Assembly: GCA_032372955.1 (NCBI GenBank)
Contig: GCA_032372955.1_4725.1
Length of the DNA stretch: 64,000 nt
Origin: Escherichia coli
GTDB taxonomy: Bacteria > Pseudomonadota > Gammaproteobacteria > Enterobacterales > Enterobacteriaceae
Direction: 5' to 3' (one strand)
A program made the position numbers and the translations under genes. Shown piece by piece: positions 1 through 16,015 of the stretch; the first letter of the stretch is position 1, and each line of letters opens with the position of its first letter. The notes beneath the pieces were generated by a model. The model saw only the letters and a list, made by a program, of their open reading frames with translations, did no database searches and was not told the DNA's origin.

Positions 1-16
1 GCCAGACGCCGCCAAG

Positions 17-616
17 ATGCGTGATATCTGGCCTATCATCAAAGAACGTTTCGGTCTTGGCCTTACCGCGGAAGAAATCGTCAACGACGAACTTAACTGG
101 GATACCGTTAACGGACAATTGCTTCGTGTCGCATCTAACTGCCTGGCTTGGACGGGGAGCGTTCGTATCTTGATGAAGTCGCGTGTACCGAATCTTGATG
201 ATATTATCGCGATCAAGGAGCTGGACGGCCTTAAGTTCTTCGGTCAAGGCGTACGCGCTAGCGGCGAGATTTACAGTTACAGCCGTGATACTTCTGATTA
301 CGGTGAACTGCTGGCTTCGCTGGTAACAGGTACCGTTATTAGCGATGTGGTGGTTGCCGATCTTCTGGCTGAAATGACTACCGATCGTTGGGTATTAGAC
401 GACAACGCCGCACCGTATAACCTGTATAATGCTAAAGTGGCTTTCAACGGTGAGTTAGGCGGACGTATTCCAGCAAGAGCAGGTTACCAATACGGTATCG
501 AGATCAGTCTGGATGAAAACTACTGTACTGCCGTTGGCGGTCCATTGATTTTCTATTACAATGTCGACGGACATACCGCAAGCCTCCAGGGTCGTTCTCC
601 AGAAGAACAAGGCTAA
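17..616 (+). CDS. hypothetical protein, LAWTGSV paralog family; reading frame is open to the window start so the gene may be 5'-truncated
   Basis: ORF track; shares LAWTGSV and C-terminal Y-C-T-x-x-GG motifs with 627..1478. Confidence 0.5.
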   Translation: MRDIWPIIKERFGLGLTAEEIVNDELNWDTVNGQLLRVASNCLAWTGSVRILMKSRVPNLDDIIAIKELDGLKFFGQGVRASGEIYSYSRDTSDYGELLASLVTGTVISDVVVADLLAEMTTDRWVLDDNAAPYNLYNAKVAFNGELGGRIPARAGYQYGIEISLDENYCTAVGGPLIFYYNVDGHTASLQGRSPEEQG

Positions 617-626
617 GGAATAAACA

Positions 627-1478
627 ATGAGTCAGAAATTGTTAAACAAAAGTCCTAAAGTACTGGTCGCTGAACTTATTCAGGCAGCCAATCCTGACTT
701 CGACTTTAACTTCGATGCAATTGATATCACGGATGTTGCTGAAAACGGAAACCACGCGTATAAACGGAACACGCGCGCTAAGGTATCGCCTTCGGCAACA
801 GTAACACCAGCACAATACCGTGAAAGCAGCTACGTGTGGTACGATCGTATCCCTATCCAAGACTTCTTCTTGGGGATGGAACCGAAGCTTGCTATCGATG
901 CCGGGGTTAAAACGACGCACGATCTTATCCCTCTGATTCAATCAACGTACGGAATCGTTATCGATCAGGATAGCTGCGTCGATTCTCCGATCGTACGAGG
1001 CGATGAATATCCGTTCCCGCACACCGTAGAATTGAAAACCACCGGATTGGCTTGGACGGGAAGTGTTACGTTCTATCTCCTCGATAGTGCCCACGATATT
1101 GCGGGGATGATGAAGACTTCGGTGATGACCGGTCTCAATTTCCCGTACTACACCGCAAATCGTATCCAGGCATTGGTCTACAGTTACGCCATAGACTGTA
1201 CAGCGATCCGTTCCGATCTCGCCGGATTAAAAGTTGGCGGTAACTTAAGCGCACTGGTTAGCTTATTCAACAACGTTGCGCCAACCCCGTGGGTTTATAA
1301 CGGCCGTGAAGACGAAAACAACCTTTACGGAGCCACCGTGCTTGCAACCGGTAAAACAACAGAACTTATCGCACAGGGTTATCCTGTTAACCCGGCGTTC
1401 GCTAACGCTGTCATCGTTACGCTTAGCCAAGATTACTGCACGAACTACGGCGGTATCCTGTTGATGCAATATAACTGA
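627..1478 (+). CDS. hypothetical protein, LAWTGSV paralog family
   Basis: ORF track; motifs STYGI, LAWTGSV, QDYCTNYGG shared with neighbouring paralogs; start 10 nt after previous stop. Confidence 0.55.
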   Translation: MSQKLLNKSPKVLVAELIQAANPDFDFNFDAIDITDVAENGNHAYKRNTRAKVSPSATVTPAQYRESSYVWYDRIPIQDFFLGMEPKLAIDAGVKTTHDLIPLIQSTYGIVIDQDSCVDSPIVRGDEYPFPHTVELKTTGLAWTGSVTFYLLDSAHDIAGMMKTSVMTGLNFPYYTANRIQALVYSYAIDCTAIRSDLAGLKVGGNLSALVSLFNNVAPTPWVYNGREDENNLYGATVLATGKTTELIAQGYPVNPAFANAVIVTLSQDYCTNYGGILLMQYN

Positions 1479-1494
1479 TTAAATAGGAAAAGAC

Positions 1495-2379
1495 ATGGCT
1501 TCTACACAAATCCGTGCTACCGATCGTATCGTCCGTACGATTATCGGCGGTCAAGTACAAACTAACCTTACGCTCGGTCTTCCTCATGCATGGGAAGAAC
1601 ACAGCACCTTGAATGAAAAGCTTCAGATTCAATCAAAGGTTTACCCCGAGGGTAATCCTGCTGTACGTTACTTCTGTATCGGCAACCAGGGTCACGAATT
1701 CATCCGCAACGCTAACGGTATCCCTTCCTCGATGCCGATCGCTCACGAAGCAAGCGATCTATCACCGTGGAAAATCAAACCTTTCGTAATGCGTGAAGTT
1801 GGTAACGACTTGACCACGGACGAACGCGCTAAATTTGGGTTACGTCGTATTGAGACACTGGAAAGCGGTAAAAAGTATATCTGTTATTACGGTCGTCGCA
1901 TCGATTTCGATAACGTTGTCCGCTCCATGCGTTATACCAAATACGTCGACGGTGTCGCTCAGACCATCGAATGGCATCCAACCGACGCGAACCTCAACCC
2001 CGCCCGACCAGATATTCCAACAACCGGAATTCTGGTAGCGACCGGGGAGTACTACGACTACAGCTGTAAAGTCTCTTTGGTTTGGACGCCATGGGATATT
2101 AACGAATATCTCAATGTGGCTAAACTCACCGAAGGTGGTGAAGAGTACGCGGTTATTTCTGAAATTGGGATGGTCTCTGCGGGCGATAAAATCGTTCGTG
2201 CTGATGATGGTCAAGGTTCGGCCTTCGACATGAACGAAATCGTCGGTGCGCAGGTTACCGATCTGATTTCGACTTACCACAACCTTTATACCACCAACGA
2301 TACGCTGACACTGAAATACGACCTTGGTGCGTTGGAAGCTCGTAAGGCAGGCCCGACGGGCGCAGAAATCCTACCGTAA
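1495..2379 (+). CDS. hypothetical protein
   Basis: 294-aa ORF, tightly packed in + strand operon. Confidence 0.5.
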   Translation: MASTQIRATDRIVRTIIGGQVQTNLTLGLPHAWEEHSTLNEKLQIQSKVYPEGNPAVRYFCIGNQGHEFIRNANGIPSSMPIAHEASDLSPWKIKPFVMREVGNDLTTDERAKFGLRRIETLESGKKYICYYGRRIDFDNVVRSMRYTKYVDGVAQTIEWHPTDANLNPARPDIPTTGILVATGEYYDYSCKVSLVWTPWDINEYLNVAKLTEGGEEYAVISEIGMVSAGDKIVRADDGQGSAFDMNEIVGAQVTDLISTYHNLYTTNDTLTLKYDLGALEARKAGPTGAEILP

Positions 2380-2394
2380 CCTAAGGGGTGTTAA

Positions 2395-3300
2395 ATGGAG
2401 TACAGTGAAATCCTAGGGTTAGAATCGAAAGAAATCCTCTTTCGGCTGATTCGAAAGCATAGCGATTTCGATGCTCGAGGCGTAACGCTGGATAAACTGG
2501 TTATCGGTGAGGCTTCTGAAAGCACAGGGTACAAGCGTAACAGCAAGTTAACCGTGCATCCCCAGCCGGGTTCAGGGCTGGTGAACTCTGTCGACATCTA
2601 TTATAACCGCATCGATCTTGGTAAACTGGGTACTTGGCCTGGCGGACAGCACCACTGGCCCGTCGAGATCGAAACCTTAGATGCGCTAACCAAGGTCTCT
2701 GAGATCCTACCTGTCTTAGCATCGACGTACGGTATCCTTCTCAACAAAACCGAGATTGTCGACGCAGATCTGGATAAGTCCAAGTCACCGATACAGGTTG
2801 TGATAACACCTAAACCCGGTAACCAAGTATGGGTTGGTCAGTTACTTGTCGAGTTAACTTCAGGACATAATGACCTCAACAACCTCGTTCGCAACAATAT
2901 GTTGGCTGGGTTGAATTATATCATCGATCGAGATAGCAGTAAACTCCCGGGCGCTATTGTTTCGTACAACTGGTTCGTATCTGCTGGTGTTCTGGCGTCA
3001 CTTACCGATGGTTATACGTTAACCTCAGGTGATACGCAATCGGAGGCACTAATCGCAGAAATGAACATGCTGCAATTGGGTCTCTCTGAAGAGATCGACG
3101 GCCTTATGGTCAACGATCGCTGGGTATTGTCAGCAATACCTGGACCACTCAACTTGCAGAATGCGAGAGTAATAGCCGATCCAGAGCAATTCAAAACACT
3201 ACCGTTTGGCGTGCGTACGGATGTTAGTAAAGCCGTCGTACTTCAACTTAGTGTGATGAATACGCTCATCGATGGTTATCTAACGCTATATGTAGCATAA
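2395..3300 (+). CDS. hypothetical protein, distant member of the same paralog family (ASTYGI motif)
   Basis: 301-aa ORF; RBS-like GGGGTG upstream; motif LPVLASTYGILL resembles LIPLIQSTYGIVI in 627..1478. Confidence 0.5.
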   Translation: MEYSEILGLESKEILFRLIRKHSDFDARGVTLDKLVIGEASESTGYKRNSKLTVHPQPGSGLVNSVDIYYNRIDLGKLGTWPGGQHHWPVEIETLDALTKVSEILPVLASTYGILLNKTEIVDADLDKSKSPIQVVITPKPGNQVWVGQLLVELTSGHNDLNNLVRNNMLAGLNYIIDRDSSKLPGAIVSYNWFVSAGVLASLTDGYTLTSGDTQSEALIAEMNMLQLGLSEEIDGLMVNDRWVLSAIPGPLNLQNARVIADPEQFKTLPFGVRTDVSKAVVLQLSVMNTLIDGYLTLYVA

Positions 3301-3309
3301 CAGCATATC

Positions 3310-3341
3310 CCCTCCTCCTTCCCTGTTGGGTTGGAGGAGGG
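3310..3341. terminator. GC-rich hairpin CCCTCCTCC/GGAGGAGGG between convergent genes, followed by T-rich tract; likely bidirectional terminator
   Basis: perfect 9-bp inverted repeat 3310-3318 / 3333-3341. Confidence 0.5.
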
Positions 3342-3351
3342 TTATGTTTGG

Positions 3352-4632
3352 TTATTTGTTTTTCTGACTGGAATCGATCAATTCGAGCTTGTGTACTGTC
3401 TGCAACGTCGCATGCGTTTCCAACCAGACCTGGTGAAGATAAGGCGTATCGTTAAGCCGCTTAACGCGCGTATGTTTGTACAACGTATTTTCAAACAACA
3501 TGTTCTTACGAAGTCCCCAGCGCGAGTGAAGTACCCATAACGGTTTTTCATAGGTCTGCACGTAAGCTGGTAACTCGCCGAGATCGGCTCGAATCAGTCC
3601 TTCCGGTTTCTTACCTAAGAAATACTGTCCTGGTACACCACTTCGTGGTAAAGGTTCTTGTGTAACCTGAATCGATGTTGCTTTGATGTACACCCAGAAA
3701 CTGCAAGGATGCGTCACCCACGCTTTCAATGCTTTATCAGACAATAAACGATTGGCAACAATGTCGGACTGTGGGTCTTCTTCGTTCAACAGAATACCAA
3801 GAGATGTTAGATCAAGGTATTTGCGGGAACGGAAGTATCTTTCATAGAGAAACATGTTAATGCAGTTTATTTTCGCTGTCGTGTCGCTAACGATCGTGTA
3901 ACAATCGTCAAGAAGATGTAAATATCCCCCGAACACCAGCGCGACGGTTTCATCTTCGGCGACCTTGCGCGGTAGCCGTAAATACATCTCGTCCTTATAC
4001 GGCAAGAGCTTCGTGGAATCAGCGATCATCTCTTCTGTGATAGCATGGATTTCCAAACTCCCGATACGGCTAAAATCAATCATACCGATATCGTTTTCTT
4101 GGCCACGCTGTGCTGTCTTGAACCCACCTTGGATATAGACACCAACGTCTTTACCGTAAACGTGAGGATGGACATAACCGCCTACGGTGAACAAGCAGTG
4201 TTTGCCGATATTTTCGTAATTCGTATTCGCTTTCGTCAACAGGATATCAGTGCGTTCCGACTCGGGAATCGCGTTGCTTGGATGATAGCCACTATTACCG
4301 ACTTTAGGGAGAAAGCCTACCGTAATAGCGTCATGACAATAAAGCTTGTGGGTTTTAATCGACAGCTCGCCAGGCTGTCCACGAAGGTTAGTATGCGCAT
4401 CCGATTTCGCTTTCAACCACGCATTGAGTGTATCACTGCTGTTTTGAAGCTCGGATTGAAATGTGTACAGATCAATAACTTGTTGCTGGTCAGCATAGCT
4501 TTCATGGACCTGGATCTTGAGTTTTTGATACGTTGAGAACAACGTACTCAGGACACTTTCACCCGCCTCAAGCGCTGTCCAGGCCGTGCCAGAACCCACG
4601 GGTAATCCGTAAGTTTTTACCAATGTATACAT
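3352..4632 (-). CDS. hypothetical protein
   Basis: 426-aa ORF on minus strand; GGAG-type RBS context upstream of start. Confidence 0.5.
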   Translation of the reverse strand: MYTLVKTYGLPVGSGTAWTALEAGESVLSTLFSTYQKLKIQVHESYADQQQVIDLYTFQSELQNSSDTLNAWLKAKSDAHTNLRGQPGELSIKTHKLYCHDAITVGFLPKVGNSGYHPSNAIPESERTDILLTKANTNYENIGKHCLFTVGGYVHPHVYGKDVGVYIQGGFKTAQRGQENDIGMIDFSRIGSLEIHAITEEMIADSTKLLPYKDEMYLRLPRKVAEDETVALVFGGYLHLLDDCYTIVSDTTAKINCINMFLYERYFRSRKYLDLTSLGILLNEEDPQSDIVANRLLSDKALKAWVTHPCSFWVYIKATSIQVTQEPLPRSGVPGQYFLGKKPEGLIRADLGELPAYVQTYEKPLWVLHSRWGLRKNMLFENTLYKHTRVKRLNDTPYLHQVWLETHATLQTVHKLELIDSSQKNK

Positions 4633-4686
4633 GGGAGAGGCCCCCTTATTTTATAGTTACAGTAATATTTTACCGCTGTTAACACA

Positions 4687-4704
4687 GGATACCCCAGGGT
4701 ATCC
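4687..4704. promoter_or_regulatory. perfect palindrome GGATACCC-CA-GGGTATCC in divergent intergenic region; candidate operator
   Basis: 8-nt arms with 2-nt spacer between divergent starts at 4632 and 4737. Confidence 0.3.
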
Positions 4705-4736
4705 CATACTTACTAACAACTTGTAAAGGGCGCATC

Positions 4737-6890
4737 ATGACAGATGAAATTAAACGCCTTCCGTATAACCCGCAGGGGAATTTGGATGGCGCATGGGTTC
4801 CAGAAGAACCCGTCACTGTCCGTCCTTCCACGGGGACCGGATTTAACTTTCTCGTTCCTAAATACGCGCCATATTTTCGTAATGGGTTAAAGATCTACAA
4901 CCCTGAAACAAACGCGTATCTGGAAGAAGGCGTTGACTTTTTATGCACTCACCCCTTCCGTGCCATGGCTGCGCTGACCGGCCTGGAATTATACGGTTCC
5001 ATCATGCTGTTGGACACCGCATTCAGTGGACAGTTGCAACTGAACTACTATTCACTGGGGGGTGAGTTTACACTTGATCAACAACAAATTCTTAACGTTT
5101 TAGCCAACAACCTCTACGACCCCCGCGTTACGTTCTGGGAAAAGGTTGCTGACGTTCCTTCCGTATTCCCGCCAATCAACCACCAACATAATGTCGAAAC
5201 CGACACAATGACGTGGGACGATGTGGTGGCGGCAATCGAATCATTGAAAGAACCGCTTGAAGAAGGGTTCAATAAAGCAATGACCGCATTGCTGCAGCAC
5301 GAGAATCGTCGCGATAACCCCCATGGCGTAACCAAGGCTCAAGTTGGATTGGGGAATGTTCAGAACTTCACAACGGCGACCGAGAGCGATCTGGAAACCA
5401 TCGGTGAAAATCTGTACATGACGTTGGCGATGACGCGTAAGATGATCGCTAACCTGAGTGGTGATAGTGCTGCTGCACACATCAGCAACTACAACAACCC
5501 ACACAAGGTAACTAAAGCCCAGGTGGGACTCGGAAACGTTGAGAACTACGGTACAGCCGATAGTAATGCAACCATTACCGGTACGGCCACAAATCTGTAC
5601 ACAACACCAGCGGGTGTACGTGCGGCAATCAAGGCGATCACGGACGGCTTAAGTACGCGCATCGATCATGTCAACGCTGCGTTAACAACCCATACCGGGG
5701 ATAATAACAACCCTCACGCTGTTACGAAAGCACAGGTAGGACTGGGGGACGTACAGAACTACGGTGTGGCGTCTAATGGGGAAGCCGGTGCAGGTGTTGC
5801 TAACAACAAATACATGACGCCCGCAACCACAGCAGCCGCCATCGCAGCGTTAATCACCCCAACCGTAACCGAACATATCGGTAACACCAACAACCCACAT
5901 GGGGTGACCAAAGCCCAAGTCGGTCTGGGAAGCGTGCAGAACTTTGGGGTTGCTACTACCCAAGAAGCTATCGACGGTCAGGCTAACAACAAGTACATGA
6001 CACCAATACTTGTTCGTTACGCGATCGAGCAAATGGCTGGTCAAGGGTTCAGTAGTCACATCGCAAATACCGAGAACCCGCACCAAGTATCTAAAGCACA
6101 GGTAGGGTTGGGGAGTGTTGAAAACTATCCTGTCGCTTCTGATGTGGAAGCACAAACAGGTGTAGCGACCAACCGCTATATGACACCGGCTGCGACAAAA
6201 GCGGCAATCATCGCTTTAGCGGGTGATGGTTTTGCGGCACACGTTGTCGATAAGAGCAACCCGCATGAAGTAACAAAATCTCAAGTTGGGTTAGGGAACG
6301 TACAGGACTTTGCTGTCGCCACCGACACGCAAGCTGCCGACAAGACTAACCAGACGACGTACATGACACCGTACTCGACTTACAAGTCAATTGCGGCGTT
6401 TGCGGCGTTAGCCGATCATACGCACACAGCCGAACAAGTCGGTGCGCTCCCCATCAATGGGGGTAAGTTAACCGGACCAATCGATCTTTCAGCAACGTCT
6501 ATCACGGGTACCGGACTCGGTATCGATGGTGCTAATGGTTCAATCAACGTCAATAAGTTGACCATCAACCAGCTTCTGGAAGCTTACGGTGGCATTGAAT
6601 CCAGTGATACGATTAAAATCCTGAACGACGATGAGACGCCCGCTAACTTCCTTGCCGATGGCGATCTCGAAGGGATCAAATGGGTTAACATCAACAGCCA
6701 AGAACCTGGAGAGAACCAAGACGGCGAGAAGATGCAGAAGATCGGTAAGCTGAGCGATTACCTTAAGAACGATTATTTAACCAGCTTGAAGACGAACACA
6801 GCGTTCCGTGATGTCTTCCAAGCACTGCTTAGGGAATTCCTTGCTAACTTCAACGCGGTTATCAAAGCAACCGACTTCGAGACGTTATAA
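4737..6890 (+). CDS. tail fibre protein with six tandem NPHxVTKAQVGLGNVxN[YF] repeat units
   Basis: 717-aa ORF; six copies of the repeat; N-terminal region and repeat shared with 10577..12625. Confidence 0.7.
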   Translation: MTDEIKRLPYNPQGNLDGAWVPEEPVTVRPSTGTGFNFLVPKYAPYFRNGLKIYNPETNAYLEEGVDFLCTHPFRAMAALTGLELYGSIMLLDTAFSGQLQLNYYSLGGEFTLDQQQILNVLANNLYDPRVTFWEKVADVPSVFPPINHQHNVETDTMTWDDVVAAIESLKEPLEEGFNKAMTALLQHENRRDNPHGVTKAQVGLGNVQNFTTATESDLETIGENLYMTLAMTRKMIANLSGDSAAAHISNYNNPHKVTKAQVGLGNVENYGTADSNATITGTATNLYTTPAGVRAAIKAITDGLSTRIDHVNAALTTHTGDNNNPHAVTKAQVGLGDVQNYGVASNGEAGAGVANNKYMTPATTAAAIAALITPTVTEHIGNTNNPHGVTKAQVGLGSVQNFGVATTQEAIDGQANNKYMTPILVRYAIEQMAGQGFSSHIANTENPHQVSKAQVGLGSVENYPVASDVEAQTGVATNRYMTPAATKAAIIALAGDGFAAHVVDKSNPHEVTKSQVGLGNVQDFAVATDTQAADKTNQTTYMTPYSTYKSIAAFAALADHTHTAEQVGALPINGGKLTGPIDLSATSITGTGLGIDGANGSINVNKLTINQLLEAYGGIESSDTIKILNDDETPANFLADGDLEGIKWVNINSQEPGENQDGEKMQKIGKLSDYLKNDYLTSLKTNTAFRDVFQALLREFLANFNAVIKATDFETL

Positions 6891-6895
6891 CGGAT

Positions 6896-6930
6896 GGGTG
6901 GGTTCTACCCACCTTTCCTTCTTTTTATTT
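6896..6930 (+). terminator. intrinsic terminator (GGGTGGGT stem, T-rich tail)
   Basis: stem 6896-6913 followed by TTTCCTTCTTTTTATTTTT. Confidence 0.55.
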
Positions 6931-6941
6931 TTCGATAGGAT

Positions 6942-7457
6942 GTGAAAATGGGCACAAAAATGAGTGAATTGGGTGCTCGCATGACGGCATGGTACGCAAG
7001 GAAGGATAACCCTAACCAAGTCACCGCAGCACAAATCGACGCACCCGATAAAAACACGATCGATACGAGAATCGGCAAAAAGCTCCCTAAGGGGATACTC
7101 CCCGTAGCGTATTTCGGTGATTGTACTGATATCCGTAGCGAACGCATCAGCAACGTTACCGCCAGCGGTACGGTAATCTCGTATCCTGAAATACCCGTCA
7201 TGATCGCCGGTACCGACTATATTCTGGCGAAGGGAACGCTAGACATCAAAAAACTTACTTCCGACTGGGCGAACAAAACCGGTTATCTTTTCATTCGTCA
7301 GAAAGACGGATCGATCGATTGGATCTGGCAGAGTAGTGCTGGGGTCGATACGTCAACAGCAATTCGCGTCGGGCAGGTGAGCTGTAACGCAACAGGAATC
7401 ACTTCGGTGGTCTTTAACAAAGTCTTCATCCTCGGCCAAAAACGTTACATGGGGTAA
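6942..7457 (+). CDS. small tail-fibre-associated protein (degenerate NP[NH]xVT N-terminal motif)
   Basis: 171-aa ORF; N-terminus DNPNQVTAAQ resembles the fibre repeat. Confidence 0.4.
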   Translation: MKMGTKMSELGARMTAWYARKDNPNQVTAAQIDAPDKNTIDTRIGKKLPKGILPVAYFGDCTDIRSERISNVTASGTVISYPEIPVMIAGTDYILAKGTLDIKKLTSDWANKTGYLFIRQKDGSIDWIWQSSAGVDTSTAIRVGQVSCNATGITSVVFNKVFILGQKRYMG

Positions 7458-7461
7458 CCGC

Positions 7462-7947
7462 ATGAAGCTATCAACACTGCTTTCTGAATGGGGGACGTAT
7501 CTTACCCAAAAGAACCCTCACGAGGTAACGCCAACACAAACAGATGTCTACGTTAAGACCGAAGTGGCTTCTAAACTTGCACCGCTTGTTACCCAGTGTT
7601 ACCTTCCCTTTCTTTTTTTCAGTCGCGATCGTATCGTACCGTCTGGTTCTTACAACAACGGAAGAATAAGTTTGTCGGAAGGTGTTGCCGAATACAATAC
7701 CAAAGAGGGTGTTGTTCCTGCAACGACGTTGGATGTGTCTGGTGTAAGTGAATCTGTTGGCTGGGTTTATCTTGCTGTCACCGATAGCGGTTTCGCCTAT
7801 ACGTTAACGGATAGCAACAGTAGTTACAAAAACGTGATGCGTATCGGGACATGGAACAAAGTTCAGGGTACCGTGCACCTCGCGGCAACACGTAAGATCG
7901 GCACCGTTGAAATCGACGACGGACAGCTTCCTGACTCGCCTATTTAA
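7462..7947 (+). CDS. small tail-fibre-associated protein, paralog of 6942..7457
   Basis: 161-aa ORF; N-terminus KNPHEVTPTQ; start 5 nt after previous stop. Confidence 0.4.
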   Translation: MKLSTLLSEWGTYLTQKNPHEVTPTQTDVYVKTEVASKLAPLVTQCYLPFLFFSRDRIVPSGSYNNGRISLSEGVAEYNTKEGVVPATTLDVSGVSESVGWVYLAVTDSGFAYTLTDSNSSYKNVMRIGTWNKVQGTVHLAATRKIGTVEIDDGQLPDSPI

Positions 7948-7959
7948 TCGAGGTGAATA

Positions 7960-10563
7960 ATGGCAATGAAAAAGTTCAGCGAACTGGTGAATAGCGTTAC
8001 TACGCGTATCGCCAGTCGCAACAATCCAACAGGACTAAACGCGAGCGATCTCGGTGCCTACAGTACCGCTGAGTTCAACACTGAGATGGAAAAATACATC
8101 GATATTGGCGTAACCGATATCGAACAGGTTGGGGACCAAAGTTATTTTCCTCTGGCAATCGAAGGCTCCGCTGACGGTGCTATCTCCCTAAACGACAGAT
8201 ACCGTCGTTACGGCGTATGTCGTGAATCAGACGGTACTATCGTGTTATTGCGTTCAGCAACGAACAGCGTAAAGAAAGGGGTTTACTACGTTATCTGTAA
8301 AACAGATCAAAACGGGCAAATCACCGAAGTTATCCCAACCAGTCGTCGTTATGAACCCGCGACGCTCGACCGTATTCCTACGGCGATATACTGTCACCAG
8401 AACGGTATCATGTTAGGTCAAGCTGCTTTTGAAGACGGTAGCAGCCCTAAAATGTTTATCGCGTTGACAGACGGAACGTTTGACGCATCCAAACATGTCG
8501 CCATGTATCTTGATGGTAGTCTTGCCAACTTTGTTGATACATCACCGCATATCTGCTGTTGGGAAATTAACGGTAAAATCTACATCGCTATCGCTGGCAC
8601 TAACAGTTATAAACTCTACTTAAATGTTTATACCGTAACTAAATCTTCCATCGGTCCCAGCGGTGGCAGCGTAGCGGCTACGCAGCTTACGAATATTAGC
8701 GGTAGAACGATAGAAGGAACAGCGATAAGCAACAGTGCCGAGATGATTGTCTGCAACCGCATATCTGCGAACGATTTCCCTTCTGACGGGATCGGTCAAA
8801 TCGTCTGGCGCGCTCAGATTCGTCTGCATGCGGCAACCAAAGGCACGAAAGCACGTATTCTGATTGCTTCGTCGTGGTGGACAAACAACCGCAAAAATCA
8901 GCAAAAGAACGGGGTACATCAGTTCTATCTGGATTTTGAAACCACCAACAACAGTTATAGCATGAATCCAGGCGCTGGACAATCCACGTACGTGTCAACC
9001 GATAGCGGAATAGACTGGGTAGGACCTTCCAACACAACGGCGGGGACAAGCGGGTATAACGACGGTTTCTGGCAGTGGGGTTCGGGTAACAGTACGGGAA
9101 ATATTGAAATCGATGAACGTGGTCAAGTCGCTGTGATTCAAAACGACAACTTATCCGCTCCCTACGCACGATCGTACACTATCAGAGGTTTCTCTGGAAA
9201 CGTGTTTGACGAACTTGCCAAACTTGGTCCAACCAGTGGAATACAGCACGACTCAAACTGGAAAAGCGTTGACGATCGTGTCGTTGGTGCACTTGCGTCC
9301 CATGGTTACCTGGGTTTCTTTGCTAAAAACAAGGTTTTCGTTAACTCGCGTACGGCTGGTGGGCAAGGTAATTTCGAAGCCCGTTTGGTGACTTACGATT
9401 GGAACCTTAGCTATCGTTATCGAGGTGAGGGTATAGACGTTTACGGTTTTCCACCTTCCAACAACGTGGTGGTTAGCGCAGGTCAACTATCGCGACCTTT
9501 CCTAACCGTACATTTAAGCGATGACAATACGGTAGTTAGCGGGTCTTATTTAACTGATTCAAACTTATCCGGTAAAATCGGATACGACGCCACCAAACTC
9601 GCACCTTCCGGTGAAGACATCAGTATAACCGCAGCCAACCTGCAAGCGGGCGGACAGCTCGTGTGGAACGCGTATACTGGAACCAAGGTGTCTGGTGTTA
9701 GTCAGTGGCAGCATGCGTTAGCCGTACCTCCAGATGGTACAAACGCACCCTGTATTCTGTTTGTTGCTGGCTGTAATAACAGCACGCGCGTACATGGACG
9801 AATCGCTGCGGAAGTTACCGTATCCGCACGTAAAGGTGCTATTACGGTGACGGGCGTAACCAAACTGCTGGGTTATGTCGAGGAAGCCGATACAACAACT
9901 ATCGGTAGTCAGTATGCTGCCTGGGGTGCATTAGCTTACAAGAAGGTGAGTGATGGATGGCTTGTTGCGGGACATGTTCCGTACTCCCGTCAGTCTGCAG
10001 GGAACCAGAACACCTATCAGTTCCGAGCTGGACGACAAAACGATGGGAACTGGACAACCATCGCATTTGAAGGTATGTATGCTTACCTACAGACAAGCGG
10101 CTGGCGCTGGAACGTGCATCCGGTGTGGGGAATCGGTTATGTTGATACCGCAGTCTCTACGGTGATGGGTAATGGCGGTCAAGTCTTTAGCGCTGTCGGT
10201 AATTCCGTTGCGGAATATAAAGCTCTCGCTGTTAAAAACCGTTACATGGTTTCTACGGTCGTTGCTGCTTCCGGTTACGATATCTACATCAACGAAGACA
10301 TCACTTGCTTGTTTGCCGGTAAAGTCATGACCCTACCTAAAGGCCATTATAACCTAAAAGACTATAATAGCTCACCAGGTAATAAAACATGGTACGTTTC
10401 CGTTGTTCCTAATGGCGACCAGTTAGAACTGGAGTTAACCATCTACAAGCAAGAGGATGATAAAGGACAGCGCGTTAATATCGGAACGATTACGACCAGC
10501 GATACCCAGATCTCTGTCATTAATCTCAATAAGACAACCAAATTAGGTACAGTCACGTTATAA
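7960..10563 (+). CDS. large putative tail fibre / receptor-binding protein
   Basis: 867-aa ORF inside the fibre cluster; GAGGTG RBS; Ser/Thr/Gly/Asn-rich composition typical of fibre proteins. Confidence 0.45.
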   Translation: MAMKKFSELVNSVTTRIASRNNPTGLNASDLGAYSTAEFNTEMEKYIDIGVTDIEQVGDQSYFPLAIEGSADGAISLNDRYRRYGVCRESDGTIVLLRSATNSVKKGVYYVICKTDQNGQITEVIPTSRRYEPATLDRIPTAIYCHQNGIMLGQAAFEDGSSPKMFIALTDGTFDASKHVAMYLDGSLANFVDTSPHICCWEINGKIYIAIAGTNSYKLYLNVYTVTKSSIGPSGGSVAATQLTNISGRTIEGTAISNSAEMIVCNRISANDFPSDGIGQIVWRAQIRLHAATKGTKARILIASSWWTNNRKNQQKNGVHQFYLDFETTNNSYSMNPGAGQSTYVSTDSGIDWVGPSNTTAGTSGYNDGFWQWGSGNSTGNIEIDERGQVAVIQNDNLSAPYARSYTIRGFSGNVFDELAKLGPTSGIQHDSNWKSVDDRVVGALASHGYLGFFAKNKVFVNSRTAGGQGNFEARLVTYDWNLSYRYRGEGIDVYGFPPSNNVVVSAGQLSRPFLTVHLSDDNTVVSGSYLTDSNLSGKIGYDATKLAPSGEDISITAANLQAGGQLVWNAYTGTKVSGVSQWQHALAVPPDGTNAPCILFVAGCNNSTRVHGRIAAEVTVSARKGAITVTGVTKLLGYVEEADTTTIGSQYAAWGALAYKKVSDGWLVAGHVPYSRQSAGNQNTYQFRAGRQNDGNWTTIAFEGMYAYLQTSGWRWNVHPVWGIGYVDTAVSTVMGNGGQVFSAVGNSVAEYKALAVKNRYMVSTVVAASGYDIYINEDITCLFAGKVMTLPKGHYNLKDYNSSPGNKTWYVSVVPNGDQLELELTIYKQEDDKGQRVNIGTITTSDTQISVINLNKTTKLGTVTL

Positions 10564-10576
10564 GGACCTCCAGGTT

Positions 10577-12625
10577 ATGTCGACACCAATTACCCTGAAG
10601 TACCCCGAGGACTGGACCGGTACACTCGCCAGCAACCACATCGTTGGTGAAGAGCATACCGTTCCACGAACCGAGAATAAATGTTACGCCCTTGATGGCG
10701 GACCGTTCTTCACCGAAAGTCTGGTCATCACTGAAAAGCTTACCGGTAAGACACTGGTACGAGGCGTGGATTATAAACCCATTTTCTTGTATCAGGATGC
10801 AACGCTTTACGCAGGTAAAGAAATCTGTGCAGCCATCGCCATCATCAACGATGATATCGAGGGGACATTAGTTAACGACTATTGTATCATCGGTGGTGTT
10901 TACGTAAGTCTTATTGACGCGTTATATCAGGCTATCGAAGAACTCAAACTTGACGATCGTCCGATCAACTGGGACGACATCAAGAACAAACCGGAACTTT
11001 ATCCGCCTGAACCACACATCCACCACGTTAGCGCCATCTACGGTACCGAACATCTTTGCTTAGCGATCTATTCACTGAAAGCCGCAATACTTATCGGTGA
11101 TGCTGCGTCCGATAACCGTCTCTGGGCAGCAATCGATCAGTTACGCAAAGACATGCAAGCAGCGGATAAAGATCTGACCGATCTGCATTACGCTCACGCT
11201 AACCGTACCGATAACCCGCACGAAACCACAAAAGCCCAAGTCGGACTAGGTAACGTACAGAACTATCCTACCGCAAACAAGGCGGAGGCAGAAGCCGGTA
11301 CTGCACCTGACCGATACATGACCGCACAAACGGTTGGTTGGGCGATTGCTAAACTGGCGGGCGATCTAGTCGATGCGCACGCTAACCGTCGGGATAACCC
11401 GCACAGCGTCACCAAAGCGCAGGTTAACCTTGGGAACGTTGATAACTTCCCGACCGCTTCGGATGATGAGGCGAAAGCCGGGACAGCGAACAACCGTTTC
11501 ATGACGCCGCTACGTACCGTTGCCGCGATCGAACAGTTCGCGTTGATTCCACTTAACGCGCATAAAGCCGATTATAACAACCCACACAGGGTAACGAAAG
11601 CCCAGGTGGGATTAGGGAATGTGCAAGACTATCCGATGGCTTCTGAAGAAGAAGCGCGTGCCGGTGTTGCAGCTAACCGATTAATGGCACCGAACACAAC
11701 CAAAGCGTCCATTGAGACCTTTGCGTTAGTTCCGCTTAATGCACACATCGCTGACAAGAATAACCCACACCAAGTGTCTAAAGCACAAGTAGGGTTAGGA
11801 AGTGTTGAGAACTACCCAACCGCTAACCAAGCTGAGGCGCAAGGTGGTTCTGCGACGAACCGTTACATGACGCCACAGTCTACCAACTGGGCAATTCAGA
11901 AATTAGCGGGTGATCTGGTTAACGCTCACGCTAACCGTCGAGACAACCCGCACGCTGTTACGAAAGCGCAGGTAGGGTTAGGGAACGTACAGAACTATGG
12001 TATCGCTTCCGATGCGCATGCGCAGCAAGATGTTAACACCGTGTATTCTACACCACGTAACGCCCGTCTCGCTGCAACGCACATCATCGACACACGCTTG
12101 TTCTGGGGTTCTTACAGCGGAAACAAACTGGTCTTCGTTGATGGTAATGGTGGTACGCGTTTAGGTAAACATGTCATCATCACGGAGAATGGCGGCGGTG
12201 AGATCACACGCTTCTATTGGGGGAACTCTGCGGGCGGTGGTAGTGCGCTATACTTCAACAGCAATATCGATGTTCCTAACGCTTACATTCGCTCGGATGA
12301 GCGTAGTAAACACGACATCCGTTATCTGAAAGACCATCCAGAATCTCTCAGTGAACGTTTACGTGAAATGGCGCGCAATGGGCTTGCCCGCTTCCGTCAC
12401 AACTACGATCCTGATGTCGAGAAGATCGGTGTTATCGCACAGCGTGTTCAAGAACAGTTCCCTGAAATGATCAACGTATCAGATAAAGGACTGTTAAGTC
12501 TTGACACCATGGTGTATAGCGGGGTTCTGTTAGGCGGTTGGTACGAACACGACCAACAGCTTCGTGCTCTGCGTGCAATGGTTGAAGAAATTGCACATCA
12601 CGTGAAAGGAACCAAGGGTATTTAA
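10577..12625 (+). CDS. tail fibre protein with five NPH repeats and C-terminal intramolecular chaperone (peptidase S74-like) domain
   Basis: 682-aa ORF; five repeat copies; C-terminal SDERSK motif about 115 aa from the end. Confidence 0.7.
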   Translation: MSTPITLKYPEDWTGTLASNHIVGEEHTVPRTENKCYALDGGPFFTESLVITEKLTGKTLVRGVDYKPIFLYQDATLYAGKEICAAIAIINDDIEGTLVNDYCIIGGVYVSLIDALYQAIEELKLDDRPINWDDIKNKPELYPPEPHIHHVSAIYGTEHLCLAIYSLKAAILIGDAASDNRLWAAIDQLRKDMQAADKDLTDLHYAHANRTDNPHETTKAQVGLGNVQNYPTANKAEAEAGTAPDRYMTAQTVGWAIAKLAGDLVDAHANRRDNPHSVTKAQVNLGNVDNFPTASDDEAKAGTANNRFMTPLRTVAAIEQFALIPLNAHKADYNNPHRVTKAQVGLGNVQDYPMASEEEARAGVAANRLMAPNTTKASIETFALVPLNAHIADKNNPHQVSKAQVGLGSVENYPTANQAEAQGGSATNRYMTPQSTNWAIQKLAGDLVNAHANRRDNPHAVTKAQVGLGNVQNYGIASDAHAQQDVNTVYSTPRNARLAATHIIDTRLFWGSYSGNKLVFVDGNGGTRLGKHVIITENGGGEITRFYWGNSAGGGSALYFNSNIDVPNAYIRSDERSKHDIRYLKDHPESLSERLREMARNGLARFRHNYDPDVEKIGVIAQRVQEQFPEMINVSDKGLLSLDTMVYSGVLLGGWYEHDQQLRALRAMVEEIAHHVKGTKGI

Positions 12626-12752
12626 TTCAACGTTCTAGAACGCGTTGTAACGCTTCGAAAAGTTTAACCTGGGGTTTGCCTGGATTAAATCGTTTATCGC
12701 GTTCTAGACCCTTCCTTGTTCCTCTAAATCGTTATTCCGACGAGGAGTTCTA

Positions 12753-13388
12753 ATGGCTAAGATTACTGAAAAAGATTTTACCTGCGAATTCATCATTCGC
12801 GACAAAACCGATGTTGAAGGTGGGTATATTGATGACCCGGATGACAGCGGGAAATGTACAAACCACGGCATCACGCAAGCGCTTGCTAATCAATACAAAA
12901 CCACGCTGAAAACGAAATTCGGCTGGAACGGTAACATGCGTAACCTTACCACGGAAATGGCGTTCTTTATCTACAAGACTCATTTCTGGGATAAGATGAA
13001 GCTTGACGAAGTCATGAAACGTTCTGTGTTCTTAGCTGACCGTCTCTTTGACCTGGGTATCAATGCAGGTAAAACGGTTGCGGTTAAGAACCTTCAGCGT
13101 TACCTGAACGTCATGAACAACCGTCAAACTTACTGGAAAGATATCAACGCCGACGGTTTGATGGGACCTGCGACGTTAGGCGTACTCGACGCTTACATCG
13201 CTAAACGCGGAGAAACCGGTAAAGATTATCTCATCGACGCGATGCTAGATATGCAGAGCACTTACTACATCGAATTAGCTGAACGTCGTGAGAAAGACGA
13301 GAAGTTCATTTACGGTTGGCAGGCACGTAAACGTCGTGAGCGTAAGCGTTATGAAGCGATCATCTTGAACGGGTTCAGTGCTGAGTAA
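12753..13388 (+). CDS. endolysin, GH108-type lysozyme domain plus C-terminal peptidoglycan-binding domain
   Basis: N-terminal EGGYIDDPDDSGKCTNHGIT matches the GH108 EGGY catalytic signature; basic C-terminal tail. Confidence 0.8.
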   Translation: MAKITEKDFTCEFIIRDKTDVEGGYIDDPDDSGKCTNHGITQALANQYKTTLKTKFGWNGNMRNLTTEMAFFIYKTHFWDKMKLDEVMKRSVFLADRLFDLGINAGKTVAVKNLQRYLNVMNNRQTYWKDINADGLMGPATLGVLDAYIAKRGETGKDYLIDAMLDMQSTYYIELAERREKDEKFIYGWQARKRRERKRYEAIILNGFSAE

Positions 13389-13452
13389 AACCCTGCCGTA
13401 AACCGTCATAAAACGCTCCAGAACGAACGGAACGCATAAAGACGTATAAGAC

Positions 13453-13483
13453 CCCTCCTCACCCAATAACGGATGAGGAGGGG
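13453..13483 (+). terminator. hairpin CCCCTCCTCA/TGAGGAGGGG downstream of endolysin
   Basis: perfect 10-bp inverted repeat; no clean T-run. Confidence 0.35.
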
Positions 13484-13682
13484 CTTAACAGGTGTTCGTG
13501 TTTATTCAGGTTGGTCTGGGTCCCTGGCCGCTTGAGGAGATCCACAACCCTTTCAACACCACGCTTCATACGAAGCGCTCAATGAGAAAGATAAGCGTGC
13601 AACCACGCAGATTGTTACAACCAAATTGTAGAAGAGCAATAGCCGAGCTGTACAAAACCCATACTATTGCTCTTTATGCTTA

Positions 13683-14225
13683 TTAGCCAACAACGCTAAC
13701 GGTCGGTTTCACGAAGCCATCAGCTACGTTATCCGCCAGAACGGTTGCCAGGTCATCTTTCGGTGCAGCTGCGTAGGTCAGTGCAACCTGCAGAGTGCCG
13801 GTATATACCAGGCCATTCTCGATCGCATTCAGAGTTACCTGACCAACAGTACCTGCAGACAGCTGGAAGGTTTCTTCATTGATTTCACCGGTCAGGGAAG
13901 CCAGACCGAATTTGGTGACCAGCTTGCTTACCAGCTCGGAAGCCTTAATGCTGTCGGTACCGTGCGGCAGTTCGAAAGTAACATCGCCAGTTACATCAGC
14001 GAAAACTTCGGACAGAGCCAGACGATCGTAGTAGAACTGCTGAGTACCCTGCAGGTTAGCTGCTTCAGCTGCAGCATCCAGCTGAATAACGGTGTTCTTT
14101 TCATGTTCGGAAGACGTCTGCGGAGTACCGAACTGCAGTTCTTCTTCGGTCAGCGTGCGGGTTGCTTTGGTGTTGATAAGATCAAGCAGAAGGGATTTCG
14201 CTGCTTTGTTAAAGTCTAAGGCCAT
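13683..14225 (-). CDS. hypothetical protein with host-optimal codon usage, probably highly expressed (structural?)
   Basis: in-frame ATG at 14225 preceded by AGAGGA RBS; the ORF-track start at 14324 is probably an over-extension. Confidence 0.5.
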   Translation of the reverse strand: MALDFNKAAKSLLLDLINTKATRTLTEEELQFGTPQTSSEHEKNTVIQLDAAAEAANLQGTQQFYYDRLALSEVFADVTGDVTFELPHGTDSIKASELVSKLVTKFGLASLTGEINEETFQLSAGTVGQVTLNAIENGLVYTGTLQVALTYAAAPKDDLATVLADNVADGFVKPTVSVVG

Positions 14226-14366
14226 GATAATGTGTCCTCTGATTTTTGATGGTCGAAAAGGAGATTCGGAGTCGTTCTCCATAATATTTACATTAATATA
14301 AAATATATTAATTTCTGTAAACACTTACATCTTTTGAGAGTGATGTAACAACCATAGAGGTAGAAA

Positions 14367-15260
14367 ATGGCAACTCAAGTTTCGCTTACTTTAAAAACAC
14401 CTTGGCAACTTATCGTTGATGAGATTAACAAACTCAACGCCGACACTGGTGCCAGCTTCCAATACACCGACCTTAAATACGTTCTTAAAGAAAAGAATCC
14501 TTCTGCTCCAGAAGCAACTTTAACGCTTAGCCCTGGTGATGGTACCCCTTACTTCAATAACCGTGATGTTACCTACCATCGTCTGGATCTGGCTAAATGG
14601 TTCCAGAAAATCGCTGTACGTGTTAACGTTACTGCTGACACCACCATCGGTGATGTGGTTGACCTTGTAGCTCAACGCTACGGTATGATCACACCGACCG
14701 GTGAGAAGTTCCTGGATAAAGATAAAGACATCAAAGCCGATACGTTATCTAATCCGGTTACCTTCAACGAGCATGGTATCCAGACGATCACCCTGGAAGC
14801 TAAAGAAGATTCGTTGGCGTGGTACGGCTCTGTTCAAGTTAAAGTTTATAACACCACGCTGGATCTGGCTAACATCATCAAGGTTACCAATCTGGGTAAC
14901 TTAACCTACGTTGATGAAGGCGACGGCACCAAAACGTCAGCACGTCTGTTAACCTATCCGTTAGACTTCAGTACTTACACCGCAGGTTTACAAGCTATTA
15001 CCAGCAACGATACCAAGATCGATGCAGGCTTAGCAGGTAACCTGACTACCCTGATCAAAGAGCAGACTGGTGTAAGTGATGATATCATCAATGAACTGAA
15101 AACCAATCTGCAAACAGCTACCTTTGTCTATAACGGTGCTACCACCGGGTCTACTGACAAAGGTGTTAACGCTACGTACAGCAATGTGCTGGTGCTGTCG
15201 TTAGCTGACGGTACTCACACCTACGGTAAAGCAGTATTCGGTTATAACGTTTCCGAATAA
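14367..15260 (+). CDS. hypothetical protein, LAWYGSV paralog family member with strongly optimal codon usage
   Basis: 297-aa ORF; GAGG RBS; motif LAWYGSVQV; codons dominated by CTG/GGT/CGT/AAC/TTC. Confidence 0.55.
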   Translation: MATQVSLTLKTPWQLIVDEINKLNADTGASFQYTDLKYVLKEKNPSAPEATLTLSPGDGTPYFNNRDVTYHRLDLAKWFQKIAVRVNVTADTTIGDVVDLVAQRYGMITPTGEKFLDKDKDIKADTLSNPVTFNEHGIQTITLEAKEDSLAWYGSVQVKVYNTTLDLANIIKVTNLGNLTYVDEGDGTKTSARLLTYPLDFSTYTAGLQAITSNDTKIDAGLAGNLTTLIKEQTGVSDDIINELKTNLQTATFVYNGATTGSTDKGVNATYSNVLVLSLADGTHTYGKAVFGYNVSE

Positions 15261-15276
15261 TTTTAATTAATCTCTC

Positions 15277-15308
15277 CCTTCCTCCTTCCCTGTTGGGTTG
15301 GAGGAAGG
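15277..15308 (+). terminator. hairpin CCTTCCTCC/GGAGGAAGG, near-copy of the 3310 element, followed by TTTATGTTTG
   Basis: 9-bp perfect stem, 14-nt loop. Confidence 0.5.
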
Positions 15309-15475
15309 TTTATGTTTGTGATTATTCTTCTCTTTTATAATTTCTAATGATAAGATTAAGTACCTGGAGTAAAAGTTTACAGATGTTGTAAATGTATTTG
15401 GAAAGTAAAATTTCCACGACCTCGGCCCCTTCGGGGGACGGGGGAGGAGCGAAGTCCTTTAGAGACGAGCAACAG

Positions 15476-15542
15476 GATAACTCTAAGAAAAAGAAAAACT
15501 AAACGAGCGAAGCGAGTTTATGTTTTTATCCTTAGAGTTATC
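15476..15542 (+). other. long inverted repeat (12-bp perfect arms GATAACTCTAAG / CTTAGAGTTATC) enclosing an A-run/T-run interior; candidate structured RNA or protein-binding site
   Basis: direct reading of the sequence in the non-coding hub. Confidence 0.35.
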
Positions 15543-15995
15543 AAGCTATAAGCGTAGCGTTAGCGTATAACGGTTATGTCGTATACGAATGCAATGAGTA
15601 TAGACGAGATACTCTGATGAACAACGTGAAGAAGAGTATCACAAATGTTTTTTGAGTTATCCGGATTTAACTAGCATGTAACGAAGTGTAATGCACAGAT
15701 GACATGTGTTACCGTTAAGGTAGTAAACACATGTTATCCATTGTTTTGAAGATAAGCTTATTAACTTACTTTTAAATCAATTTAAATATACAAACAACTT
15801 AAACATACCAAGATAAAACAATTGAACCTAAGATAAACAAGATAACTTAGACAATACACTTTTAACGAATACAGATAACATCTTACTTAAATCAAAATAC
15901 CTATCCTCGTTTACCTTCCTTGCTTGCAACACCTCTTCTAAATCCATCCCTTCTTAAGAAACAACAAAACCCTTACTGTAACACAAATCCTTTCA

Positions 15996-16015
15996 CGACT
16001 ATATTACCTAAGTGA
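15996..16015 (+). promoter_or_regulatory. phage-specific promoter-like element CGACTATATTACCTAAGTGA (copy 1 of 3)
   Basis: 23 of 25 nt identical to the copy at 28497..28520; lies about 85 nt upstream of the first early-type gene. Confidence 0.45.

Follow-up and report, generated by a model that had tools for sequence, protein, structure and literature searches.

The best described counterparts of the locus treated here are the peripheral baseplate fibres of two jumbo phages, phiKZ and vB_EcoM_Goslar. The phiKZ atlas (PMC13250141) describes twelve peripheral fibres whose attachment sites lie beneath the outer-baseplate protein gp130, each site holding six N-terminal domains (N-domains) of gp131 type and a six-helix bundle, and proposes that the sites are occupied by a mixture of paralogues. 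Goslar is a nucleus-forming jumbo phage of Escherichia coli (NC_048170; Korf et al. 2019, PMC6563267); its receptor is the outer core of lipopolysaccharide (LPS). We analysed a 64,000-nucleotide (nt) stretch of DNA, hereafter the window, from an assembly filed under E. coli (GCA_032372955.1, contig GCA_032372955.1_4725.1), and in particular a cluster of five fibre genes at positions 4737-12625. We read this cluster, with a probability of roughly 0.75, as the baseplate-fibre cluster of a Goslar-like chimallivirus and the counterpart of phiKZ gp130-gp135, comprising two shaft proteins of the gp131 family and three tip proteins that carry no baseplate anchor.

The identification rests on close similarity to Goslar and on a shared layout with phiKZ. 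DNA identity between the window and Goslar is 92.7% over the whole region, and the five fibre genes are common to both, the Goslar orthologues being, in window order, gp29, gp28, gp27, gp26 and gp25, which are annotated solely as "virion structural" or "hypothetical". Goslar gp25-gp30 and their window orthologues agree in length and in repeat number, and differ in allelic blocks that cover repeat units 3-6 of the first fibre gene, most of 7462-7947 and the middle of 7960-10563. All five genes are co-oriented and their 5' neighbour (3352-4632) is divergent, so that gene order and orientation (a gp130 homologue pointing away, then the fibre genes) are those found in phiKZ, where gp130 lies on the minus strand and gp131-gp135 on the plus strand, in Goslar, and in PhiEaH1. 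The first and last genes of the cluster have their best phiKZ matches in gp131 (BLASTP expectation value, E, 1e-42; tblastn also matches PHIKZ131) and gp135 (E 1e-30), with gp133 and gp134 matched as well. A protein of phage RAY that is also called "gp131" was set aside, being an unrelated helicase of RAY. The basic identification is thus not new: the cluster belongs to the phiKZ gp131-135 kind and is orthologous to published Goslar genes. Its features are as follows (aa, amino acids).

3352..4632, minus strand: gp130 homologue (phiKZ gp130, Goslar gp30); BLASTP against phiKZ gp130 E 7e-27 over 343 aa, match to phrog_3337, Goslar orthologue found in virions
4737..6890, plus strand: fibre protein 1 (g1), 717 aa, Goslar gp29 orthologue, closest to phiKZ gp131
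5280..6404, plus strand: shaft array of fibre protein 1, six 61-aa units
6895..6914, plus strand: terminator-like hairpin, predicted by a consensus scan
6948..7457, plus strand: putative tip module A (g2s), 169 aa, Goslar gp28 orthologue
7462..7947, plus strand: putative tip module B (g3s), 161 aa, Goslar gp27 orthologue
7960..10563, plus strand: putative tip module C (g4), 867 aa, Goslar gp26 orthologue
10577..12625, plus strand: fibre protein 2 (g5), 682 aa, Goslar gp25 orthologue, closest to phiKZ gp135
11177..12091, plus strand: shaft array of fibre protein 2, five 61-aa units
12293..12469, plus strand: Peptidase_S74 domain of fibre protein 2, by Pfam match
12753-13388: GH108/PG_binding_3 endolysin, directly 3' of the fibre cluster

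An initial annotation, made from the letters of the window alone, had called the first and last of the five genes tail-fibre genes, and this is borne out: both encode an N-domain of phiKZ gp131 type, both adjoin the gp130 homologue, and both have Goslar orthologues (gp29 and gp25) that the virion mass spectrometry of that phage lists as tail fibre. Fibre protein 1, which is 94% identical to a 717-aa protein in our set (P0001), equals Goslar gp29 in length and matches phrog_2163 and phrog_13857, begins with a beta domain (aa 1-125) and continues through a helical neck (aa 153-190) and six repeat units to a junction ("HTHTAEQVGALP") and a tip of about 155 aa. In its AlphaFold2 (AF2) model the N-domain is compact, with a predicted local distance difference test (pLDDT) score of about 90, and the predicted neck is compatible with a six-helix bundle of the phiKZ type, the hexamer being described in phiKZ only; the C-terminus (aa 558-717) is short, is modelled at low confidence and contains no propeller. 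In fibre protein 2 an N-domain of the same type leads, through a longer helical neck and five units, to a distal domain, and the chain ends in an S74 intramolecular chaperone (PF13884, 25.6 bits against a cutoff of 22, aa 573-631), of which the start, as read from the translation, holds the string S575-D-E-R-S-K580 ("SDERSK"). S575 and K580 would be the catalytic Ser-Lys pair of the S74 domain, a chaperone of the self-cleaving kind. The two fibre proteins align over N-domain and repeats with E 3e-93 and, judged from sequence comparison, are old paralogues of the gp131 family that bear different tips. Across nine Goslar-like genomes fibre protein 2 varies in a single short patch of its distal domain (window 12141-12260, aa ~520-560), where identity falls to 68-71% in L005 and L014, and is uniform elsewhere.

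The repeat from which both shafts are built had been described as six copies in 4737-6890 and five in 10577-12625, and both these counts and both open reading frames (ORFs) were confirmed, whereas the unit measures 61 aa (183 nt) instead of the 55-60 aa first estimated. In fibre protein 1 the NPH cores stand at aa 194, 254, 325, 386, 447 and 508 (nt 5316, 5496, 5709, 5892, 6075 and 6258), spaced by 60, 71, 61, 61 and 61 aa; in fibre protein 2 they stand at aa 213, 274, 335, 396 and 457 (nt 11213, 11396, 11579, 11762 and 11945), with a spacing of exactly 61 aa (183 nt) throughout. The core NPHxVTKAQVGLGNVxN proved to be nearly invariant, and not strictly so as claimed at first, given the variants ETTKAQ, VSKAQ, VTKSQ, VNLGNV, GLGS and GLGD. 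When the 11 units are aligned, 11 columns are invariant (H7, N13, P14, H15, K19, Q21, V22, L24, G25, V27 and A33) and mean column identity is 62%. At the DNA level, repeat families of 10-13 copies keep a 183-nt register, and searching 1.84 billion proteins with a profile of the unit yielded 16,258 cluster representatives (E<=1e-3), a single protein containing as many as 29 matched stretches; both results exclude a repeat that arose by chance. Tandem Repeats Finder nevertheless leaves the arrays undetected because the units are too diverged in DNA.

Among curated models, which include fibre repeat families such as Phage_fiber_2, Pfam at E<=10 gave no relevant match to the repeat region and NCBIfam at E<=1 gave no relevant repeat match, only chance matches to Blr families at E ~0.5; at these thresholds the three middle genes of the cluster had no match of interest either. 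The repeat is matched by PHROG families only, most of them unannotated. Searches of PDB chains with both fibre proteins, the 867-aa protein and the repeat profile gave no relevant sequence match, and in a full-text literature search the motif strings did not turn up in any paper. In the AF2 monomer model of fibre protein 1 each unit is an extended NPH loop followed by a short and a long helix, and the second half of the unit (A..EA..G....YMTP) presumably resembles the ATxxE..G....TP motif of fibres of the T4 gp12/gp34 type. Local Foldseek matches of the same model include gp12 in the T4 baseplate (5iv5_AI, E 6e-5), the C-terminal region of T4 gp34 (5nxh, E 0.04) and a baseplate chain of Klebsiella phage KP1 (9f4b_F1, E 2e-5); as the matches come with a very large root-mean-square deviation (the model being an extended monomer) and with no sequence match in the PDB, homology is not established by them. 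The repeats would be structural shaft modules that set fibre length, and the two genes would not be actively recombining through them.

Compared with phiKZ, the window shares the N-domain, the NPH repeat and the junction unit, and differs in how these are distributed. Shafts in the window have 5-6 units against 1-2 in phiKZ, where by our count a junction follows two units in gp131 and one unit in gp133-135, gp132 being a lone unit. Whereas phiKZ gp133-135 retain the N-domain, just two of the five window proteins are anchored, the three middle ones having no anchor. The C-terminus of phiKZ gp131 is a seven-bladed propeller (Sycheva et al. 2012), a feature that defines gp131 itself and not its family of paralogues; fibre protein 1 has none, and a weakly propeller-like body is found instead in the separate 867-aa protein. 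In a further difference from the phiKZ cluster, fibre protein 2 ends in an S74 chaperone, a domain that it shares with the K1F endosialidase, T5 pb1 and S16 gp37, and its C-terminus weakly matches that of S16 gp37, the distal subunit of the long tail fibre (6f45). We also observed that phiKZ gp132 (110 aa, L010 11302-11634) contains little beyond one NPH unit and the helix preceding it, and is a separately encoded virion protein.

The three middle proteins are best understood from fibres in which all parts are on one chain. In the single-chain homologues of fibre protein 1, the N-domain is followed by 5-13 units and then by a last unit of the form H....NPH.VTAAQVGAY[ST]..E.D..L..KL, which stands directly before the variable distal domain and which we call the junction unit. 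The two small proteins had been said to begin with a degenerate copy of the repeat, and indeed do so (NPNQVTAAQ at nt 7008, NPHEVTPTQ at nt 7513); the 867-aa protein, for which this went unremarked in the initial annotation, does as well (NPTGLNASDLGAY at nt 8023; SRNNPTGLNASDLGAY). All three N-termini align to the junction unit of the single-chain fibres and not to their internal units. Profile comparison by hhalign relates the 169-aa to the 161-aa protein with a probability of 96% (E 1.5e-9, 106 columns), and to the 867-aa protein both over its N-terminus (first 55 aa; 91.5%, E 8.7e-7) and over its C-terminus (last 84 aa; 95.5%, E 1.6e-8). As far as sequence can tell, then, the three are paralogous tip modules without an N-terminal anchor, and since the 169-aa and 867-aa proteins share the first 55 and last 84 aa, the latter can be described as a scaffold like that of the 169-aa protein with an insertion of ~720 aa.

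An AF2 model of the 867-aa protein is beta-rich (pLDDT 70), and its best Foldseek matches in the PDB are glycosidases with five- and six-bladed propellers, at weak scores (E 4e-5, TM 0.3-0.4). PHROG profiles show other phages to have the N-domain, a repeat and a counterpart of the 867-aa protein's body on one and the same chain. The order of the trio is kept in every relative examined (L005-L009, including the distant L007 and L009), and PhiEaH1, a phage of another genus, has an equivalent arrangement in which proteins of 184 and 893 aa start with textbook junction units; for its third middle gene (364 aa) no link to the 161-aa protein was detected. The 161-aa protein had no match when GTDB genome contigs were scanned for it, and a word-indexed homologue search with the 169-aa protein returned close relatives only. 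For the first small gene the ORF predicted initially is present, with a start that probably differs: in place of the GTG at 6942, the ATG at 6948 is likelier; it gives 169 aa, is preceded by an AGGA at a distance of 6 nt and agrees with the start of Goslar gp028.

Variation among relatives takes the form of a mosaic. Between the window and Goslar there are three collinear blocks with 72-87% identity, in fibre gene 1 (~5600-6600), in the 161-aa gene (~7590-7947) and in the 867-aa gene (~8850-9900). In these divergent blocks the synonymous rate (dS) is saturated and the ratio of the nonsynonymous rate (dN) to it is ~0.1, and we therefore regard them as alleles imported by homologous recombination and not as products of local selection; positive selection in situ was rejected on the same values. 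The 161-aa gene, for example, carries from ~nt 7590 to its end an allele divergent from that of Goslar (dS saturated, dN 0.08-0.3), which among the nine Goslar-like genomes is shared with L012 only, and the nearest relative of the window changes many times along the cluster. No part of the locus varies more among the nine genomes than its hypervariable cassette, the central body of the 867-aa protein: in L005 and L015 this body retains 31-58% nt and 20-60% aa identity, against 93-99% aa identity in neighbouring genes. The conserved ends of the protein (the first ~60 and last ~120 residues) are what it has in common with the two small proteins. The initial expectation that the distal parts of both repeat genes would show variation of a host-range type is accordingly not what we see, the variation lying mostly in the body of 7960-10563 and not in the two tips.

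Repeat number is stable at short range, with six and five units in 9/9 Goslar-like genomes and alignment gaps in L005, L015 and L012 only; the two fibre proteins of L005 are, as in the window, 717 and 682 aa long. At longer range, the array of fibre gene 1 is exactly one 61-aa unit shorter in the L007 orthologue (five) and one longer in that of P0006 (seven). The S74 domain, confined to fibre protein 2 in the window, is replaced in the orthologous fibre of L007, which matches through unit 5 and then has a different tip and, beside it, a separate chaperone-like gene (weak Phage_tail_APC match), the pair standing directly after the orthologue of fibre gene 1. Hundreds of further homologues cover just the first 75-79% of the protein, their tips diverging after the last unit.

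The initial annotation had proposed that the shared repeats provide homology for the recombinational exchange of distal parts. One part of this stands, namely strong mosaicism, changes by whole units and tip swaps after the array, and another finds no support, namely exchange between the two genes and an enrichment of breakpoints at the cores. A locus with neither nucleotide identity between the two genes nor mosaicism among relatives is not what we found, as the relatives are clearly mosaic here. However, change points fall within the 60-nt cores in 9/23 clusters, against 32% expected, so that mosaic breakpoints are not enriched at the repeats, the change points being those of a crude two-state hidden Markov model applied to genome pairs that are not independent. 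DNA identity is 35-63% among units and 43-63% between those of fibre gene 1 and fibre gene 2, no exact match shared by the genes exceeds 18 nt (11-14 in shuffled sequences), and conserved residues have their codon in common in 43.6% of cases, where codon usage alone would give 39.7%. The near-chance codon identity and the low DNA identity therefore indicate that the arrays are old, with no sign of exchange between the genes, and recent gene conversion between the arrays was rejected on the strength of the former. Inverted repeats at the locus are limited to short matches of 16-26 nt, as by chance, no family of direct repeats exceeds ~75% identity over >30 nt, and window 1-16000 has no ORF resembling a recombinase or a reverse transcriptase (RT). 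In view of the lack of meaningful inverted repeats, of a near-identical repeat pair and of a recombinase or RT gene, an invertible segment of the Mu/P1 type and a diversity-generating retroelement were both rejected, and a programmed fibre-switching system is excluded.

Whether the two fibres are alternatives to each other can be judged from the Goslar virion mass spectrometry (10.64898/2026.04.21.720040), which gives gp25 at 58-136 and gp29 at 50-118 copies over three normalisations, both labelled tail fibre. Since both orthologues are abundant at similar levels, fibres 1 and 2 would occur together on one virion; the idea of "alternative" fibres, which had been put forward at first, does not agree with this near-equality in purified virions, nor with the sharing of attachment sites by the phiKZ paralogues. 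In the same phage gp26, gp27 and gp28 are each present at 8.5-22 copies in virions purified on cesium chloride (CsCl), that is, nearly equimolar and at ~1/6 of gp25 and gp29. In the consulted portions of the Goslar papers gp25 and gp29 count as tail fibre or as components of the peripheral baseplate, and neither the repeat, nor the trio that begins at the junction unit, nor the mosaic is mentioned. Four points are absent from the consulted portions of the Goslar and phiKZ literature: that three anchorless proteins begin with a junction unit and are paralogues of one another, that hypervariability is localised in the body of the 867-aa protein, that the two arrays show no sign of exchange, and that a 61-aa shaft unit not covered by the searched copies of Pfam and NCBIfam is widespread.

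These observations can be arranged into the following scheme. Fibre proteins 1 and 2 would dock through their N-domains beneath the gp130 homologue and both would occupy each attachment site, as has been proposed for the phiKZ paralogues, each of them projecting a shaft with a length that would be set by how many 61-aa units it contains. The anchorless trio would attach to a fibre through their N-terminal junction unit and may supply its variable, probably carbohydrate-binding distal part, a candidate binder of the LPS core receptor; among them we would single out the 867-aa protein as the leading receptor-binding candidate. Variation in host range would come mainly from homologous replacement of allelic blocks between co-infecting relatives, the replaced blocks lying within the 867-aa gene, the 161-aa gene and the middle of fibre gene 1 and the conserved assembly interfaces serving as flanks, while over longer time scales whole units may be gained or lost and tips replaced at the end of the array. 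Several points weigh against this scheme. The mode in which the anchorless proteins attach is something that we infer; the propeller assignment of the 867-aa protein depends on a model of pLDDT 70 and on weak Foldseek scores; label-free copy numbers from mass spectrometry are rough, and the ~6:1 ratio of anchored to anchorless proteins fits no single simple model uniquely; and these virion data come from Goslar and not from the window phage. In addition, the distal fibres are unresolved in both 2026 cryo-EM studies (phiKZ and Goslar), which offer no fibre structure for Goslar or the window phage. Finally, a body like that of the 867-aa protein occurs elsewhere in single-chain, presumably homotrimeric fibres, so the three proteins could equally be separate homotrimers.

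Two explanations bear on how the three proteins are assembled. One tentative proposal is that the orthologues of gp28, gp27 and gp26 form a single 1:1:1 heterotrimeric distal module, with a pseudo-threefold stalk made of junction units and 84-aa C-terminal domains, in which one chain alone carries the hypervariable, propeller-like body of ~720 aa and which plugs non-covalently onto an anchored shaft. If true, the tail fibre would be a split one, its shaft and anchor left intact by any exchange of the receptor-binding cassette. Another possible arrangement, held by us with similar reserve, makes each of the three an independent homotrimeric mini-fibre or side branch that attaches itself and adds to several receptor specificities, for which the branched fibres of CBA120, G7C or RaK2-type phages offer a comparison. 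Independent mini-fibres are favoured by the fact that each protein has a junction unit of its own followed by a predicted helix, and by the presence of both the large body and a domain like the small proteins inside single-chain, presumably homotrimeric fibres (PHROG 3573, 7449 and 7557). However, the near-equal amounts of the three in Goslar virions, the N- and C-terminal modules common to all three with a large insertion in one only, and the conservation of these shared ends where the body has been replaced all fit a mixed trimer at least as well.

The other two explanations concern the repeats and the small genes, and we consider both improbable. If the repeat genes encoded alternative or stacked fibres whose shared repeats were homology tracts for exchanging distal receptor-binding parts between genes or phages, one could point to the strong mosaicism among the nine Goslar-like genomes, to orthologue arrays that differ by exact 61-aa units, and to tips that diverge as soon as the array ends, in L007 and hundreds of homologues alike; on the other hand, the units of the two genes are only 43-63% identical in DNA and share no run of more than 18 bases, codon identity lies where codon usage alone would put it, nine genomes retain six and five units in register, change points show no enrichment in the cores, and both proteins co-occur in Goslar virions. 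An explanation of the small genes (6948-7457 and 7462-7947) as tail-fibre assembly chaperones without a structural role would likewise have a rationale, as small genes directly 3' of fibre genes often encode chaperones and L007 has a protein with a weak Phage_tail_APC match in the corresponding cluster. Against it, neither small gene (searched with the first taken as 6942-7457) matched a tail fibre assembly chaperone family (Tfa, Phage_tail_APC) in Pfam, NCBIfam or PHROG; the junction unit and C-terminal domain are common to the small proteins and the 867-aa structural protein, and to fibres; the Goslar orthologues are found in CsCl-purified virions, equimolar with gp26; and L007 has the trio besides its chaperone-like gene.

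With the cluster read as two anchored shafts and three anchorless tip proteins, the five genes of the Goslar-lineage fibre cluster can be told apart, two carrying the baseplate anchor and three starting at the junction of shaft and tip. Placing the most exchangeable part in the 867-aa protein narrows the search for a determinant of host range, and specific complexes are suggested for modelling or purification. The analysis also documents a widespread 61-aa shaft unit (>16,000 sequence clusters) that falls outside the searched copies of Pfam and NCBIfam. Its use lies in the annotation and engineering of jumbo phages; the general understanding of tail fibres is left unchanged.

A few observations concern the surroundings of the fibre genes. 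The strong terminator-like hairpin at 6895-6914 sits inside an otherwise operon-like run of genes, 5 nt past the stop codon of fibre gene 1; it is a predicted structure with an 8-bp stem that includes five GC pairs (GGGTGGGTTCTACCCACC, followed by the T-rich tail TTCCTTCTTT). It may contribute to the lower level of the three middle proteins, yet the abundant gp25 lies farther downstream. Directly 3' of the cluster, the endolysin has a Goslar orthologue, gp024 (YP_009820709.1), which appears at ~51-120 copies in the virion mass-spectrometry table, near both fibre proteins. Because this copy number in virions resembles that of the fibre proteins, the combination of GH108 and PG_binding_3 suggests a virion-associated peptidoglycan hydrolase, instead of or besides a lysis enzyme.

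Paralogues of the DUF7941 family flank the cluster on both sides (17-616, 627-1478, 2395-3300, 13683-14324 on the minus strand, and 14367-15260), and the protein at 1495-2379, of family DUF7208, is a homologue of the spoke protein (Goslar gp32, phiKZ gp139); these Pfam assignments were taken from near-identical orthologues in L005. The DUF7941 family has been proposed, in the Goslar preprint (10.64898/2026.04.21.720040), to form a "fiber cloud" at the baseplate. Goslar-like sequences are also deposited within Salmonella enterica assemblies (serovars Enteritidis and Panama), namely L005 (GCA_014829495.1, a near-complete contig of 236 kb), P0121, P0142 and P0150, which reflects either phages that occur with Salmonella too or contamination of the assemblies. 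Lastly, the G+C content of window 14001-16000 is 0.41, against 0.45-0.50 in the rest of the window.

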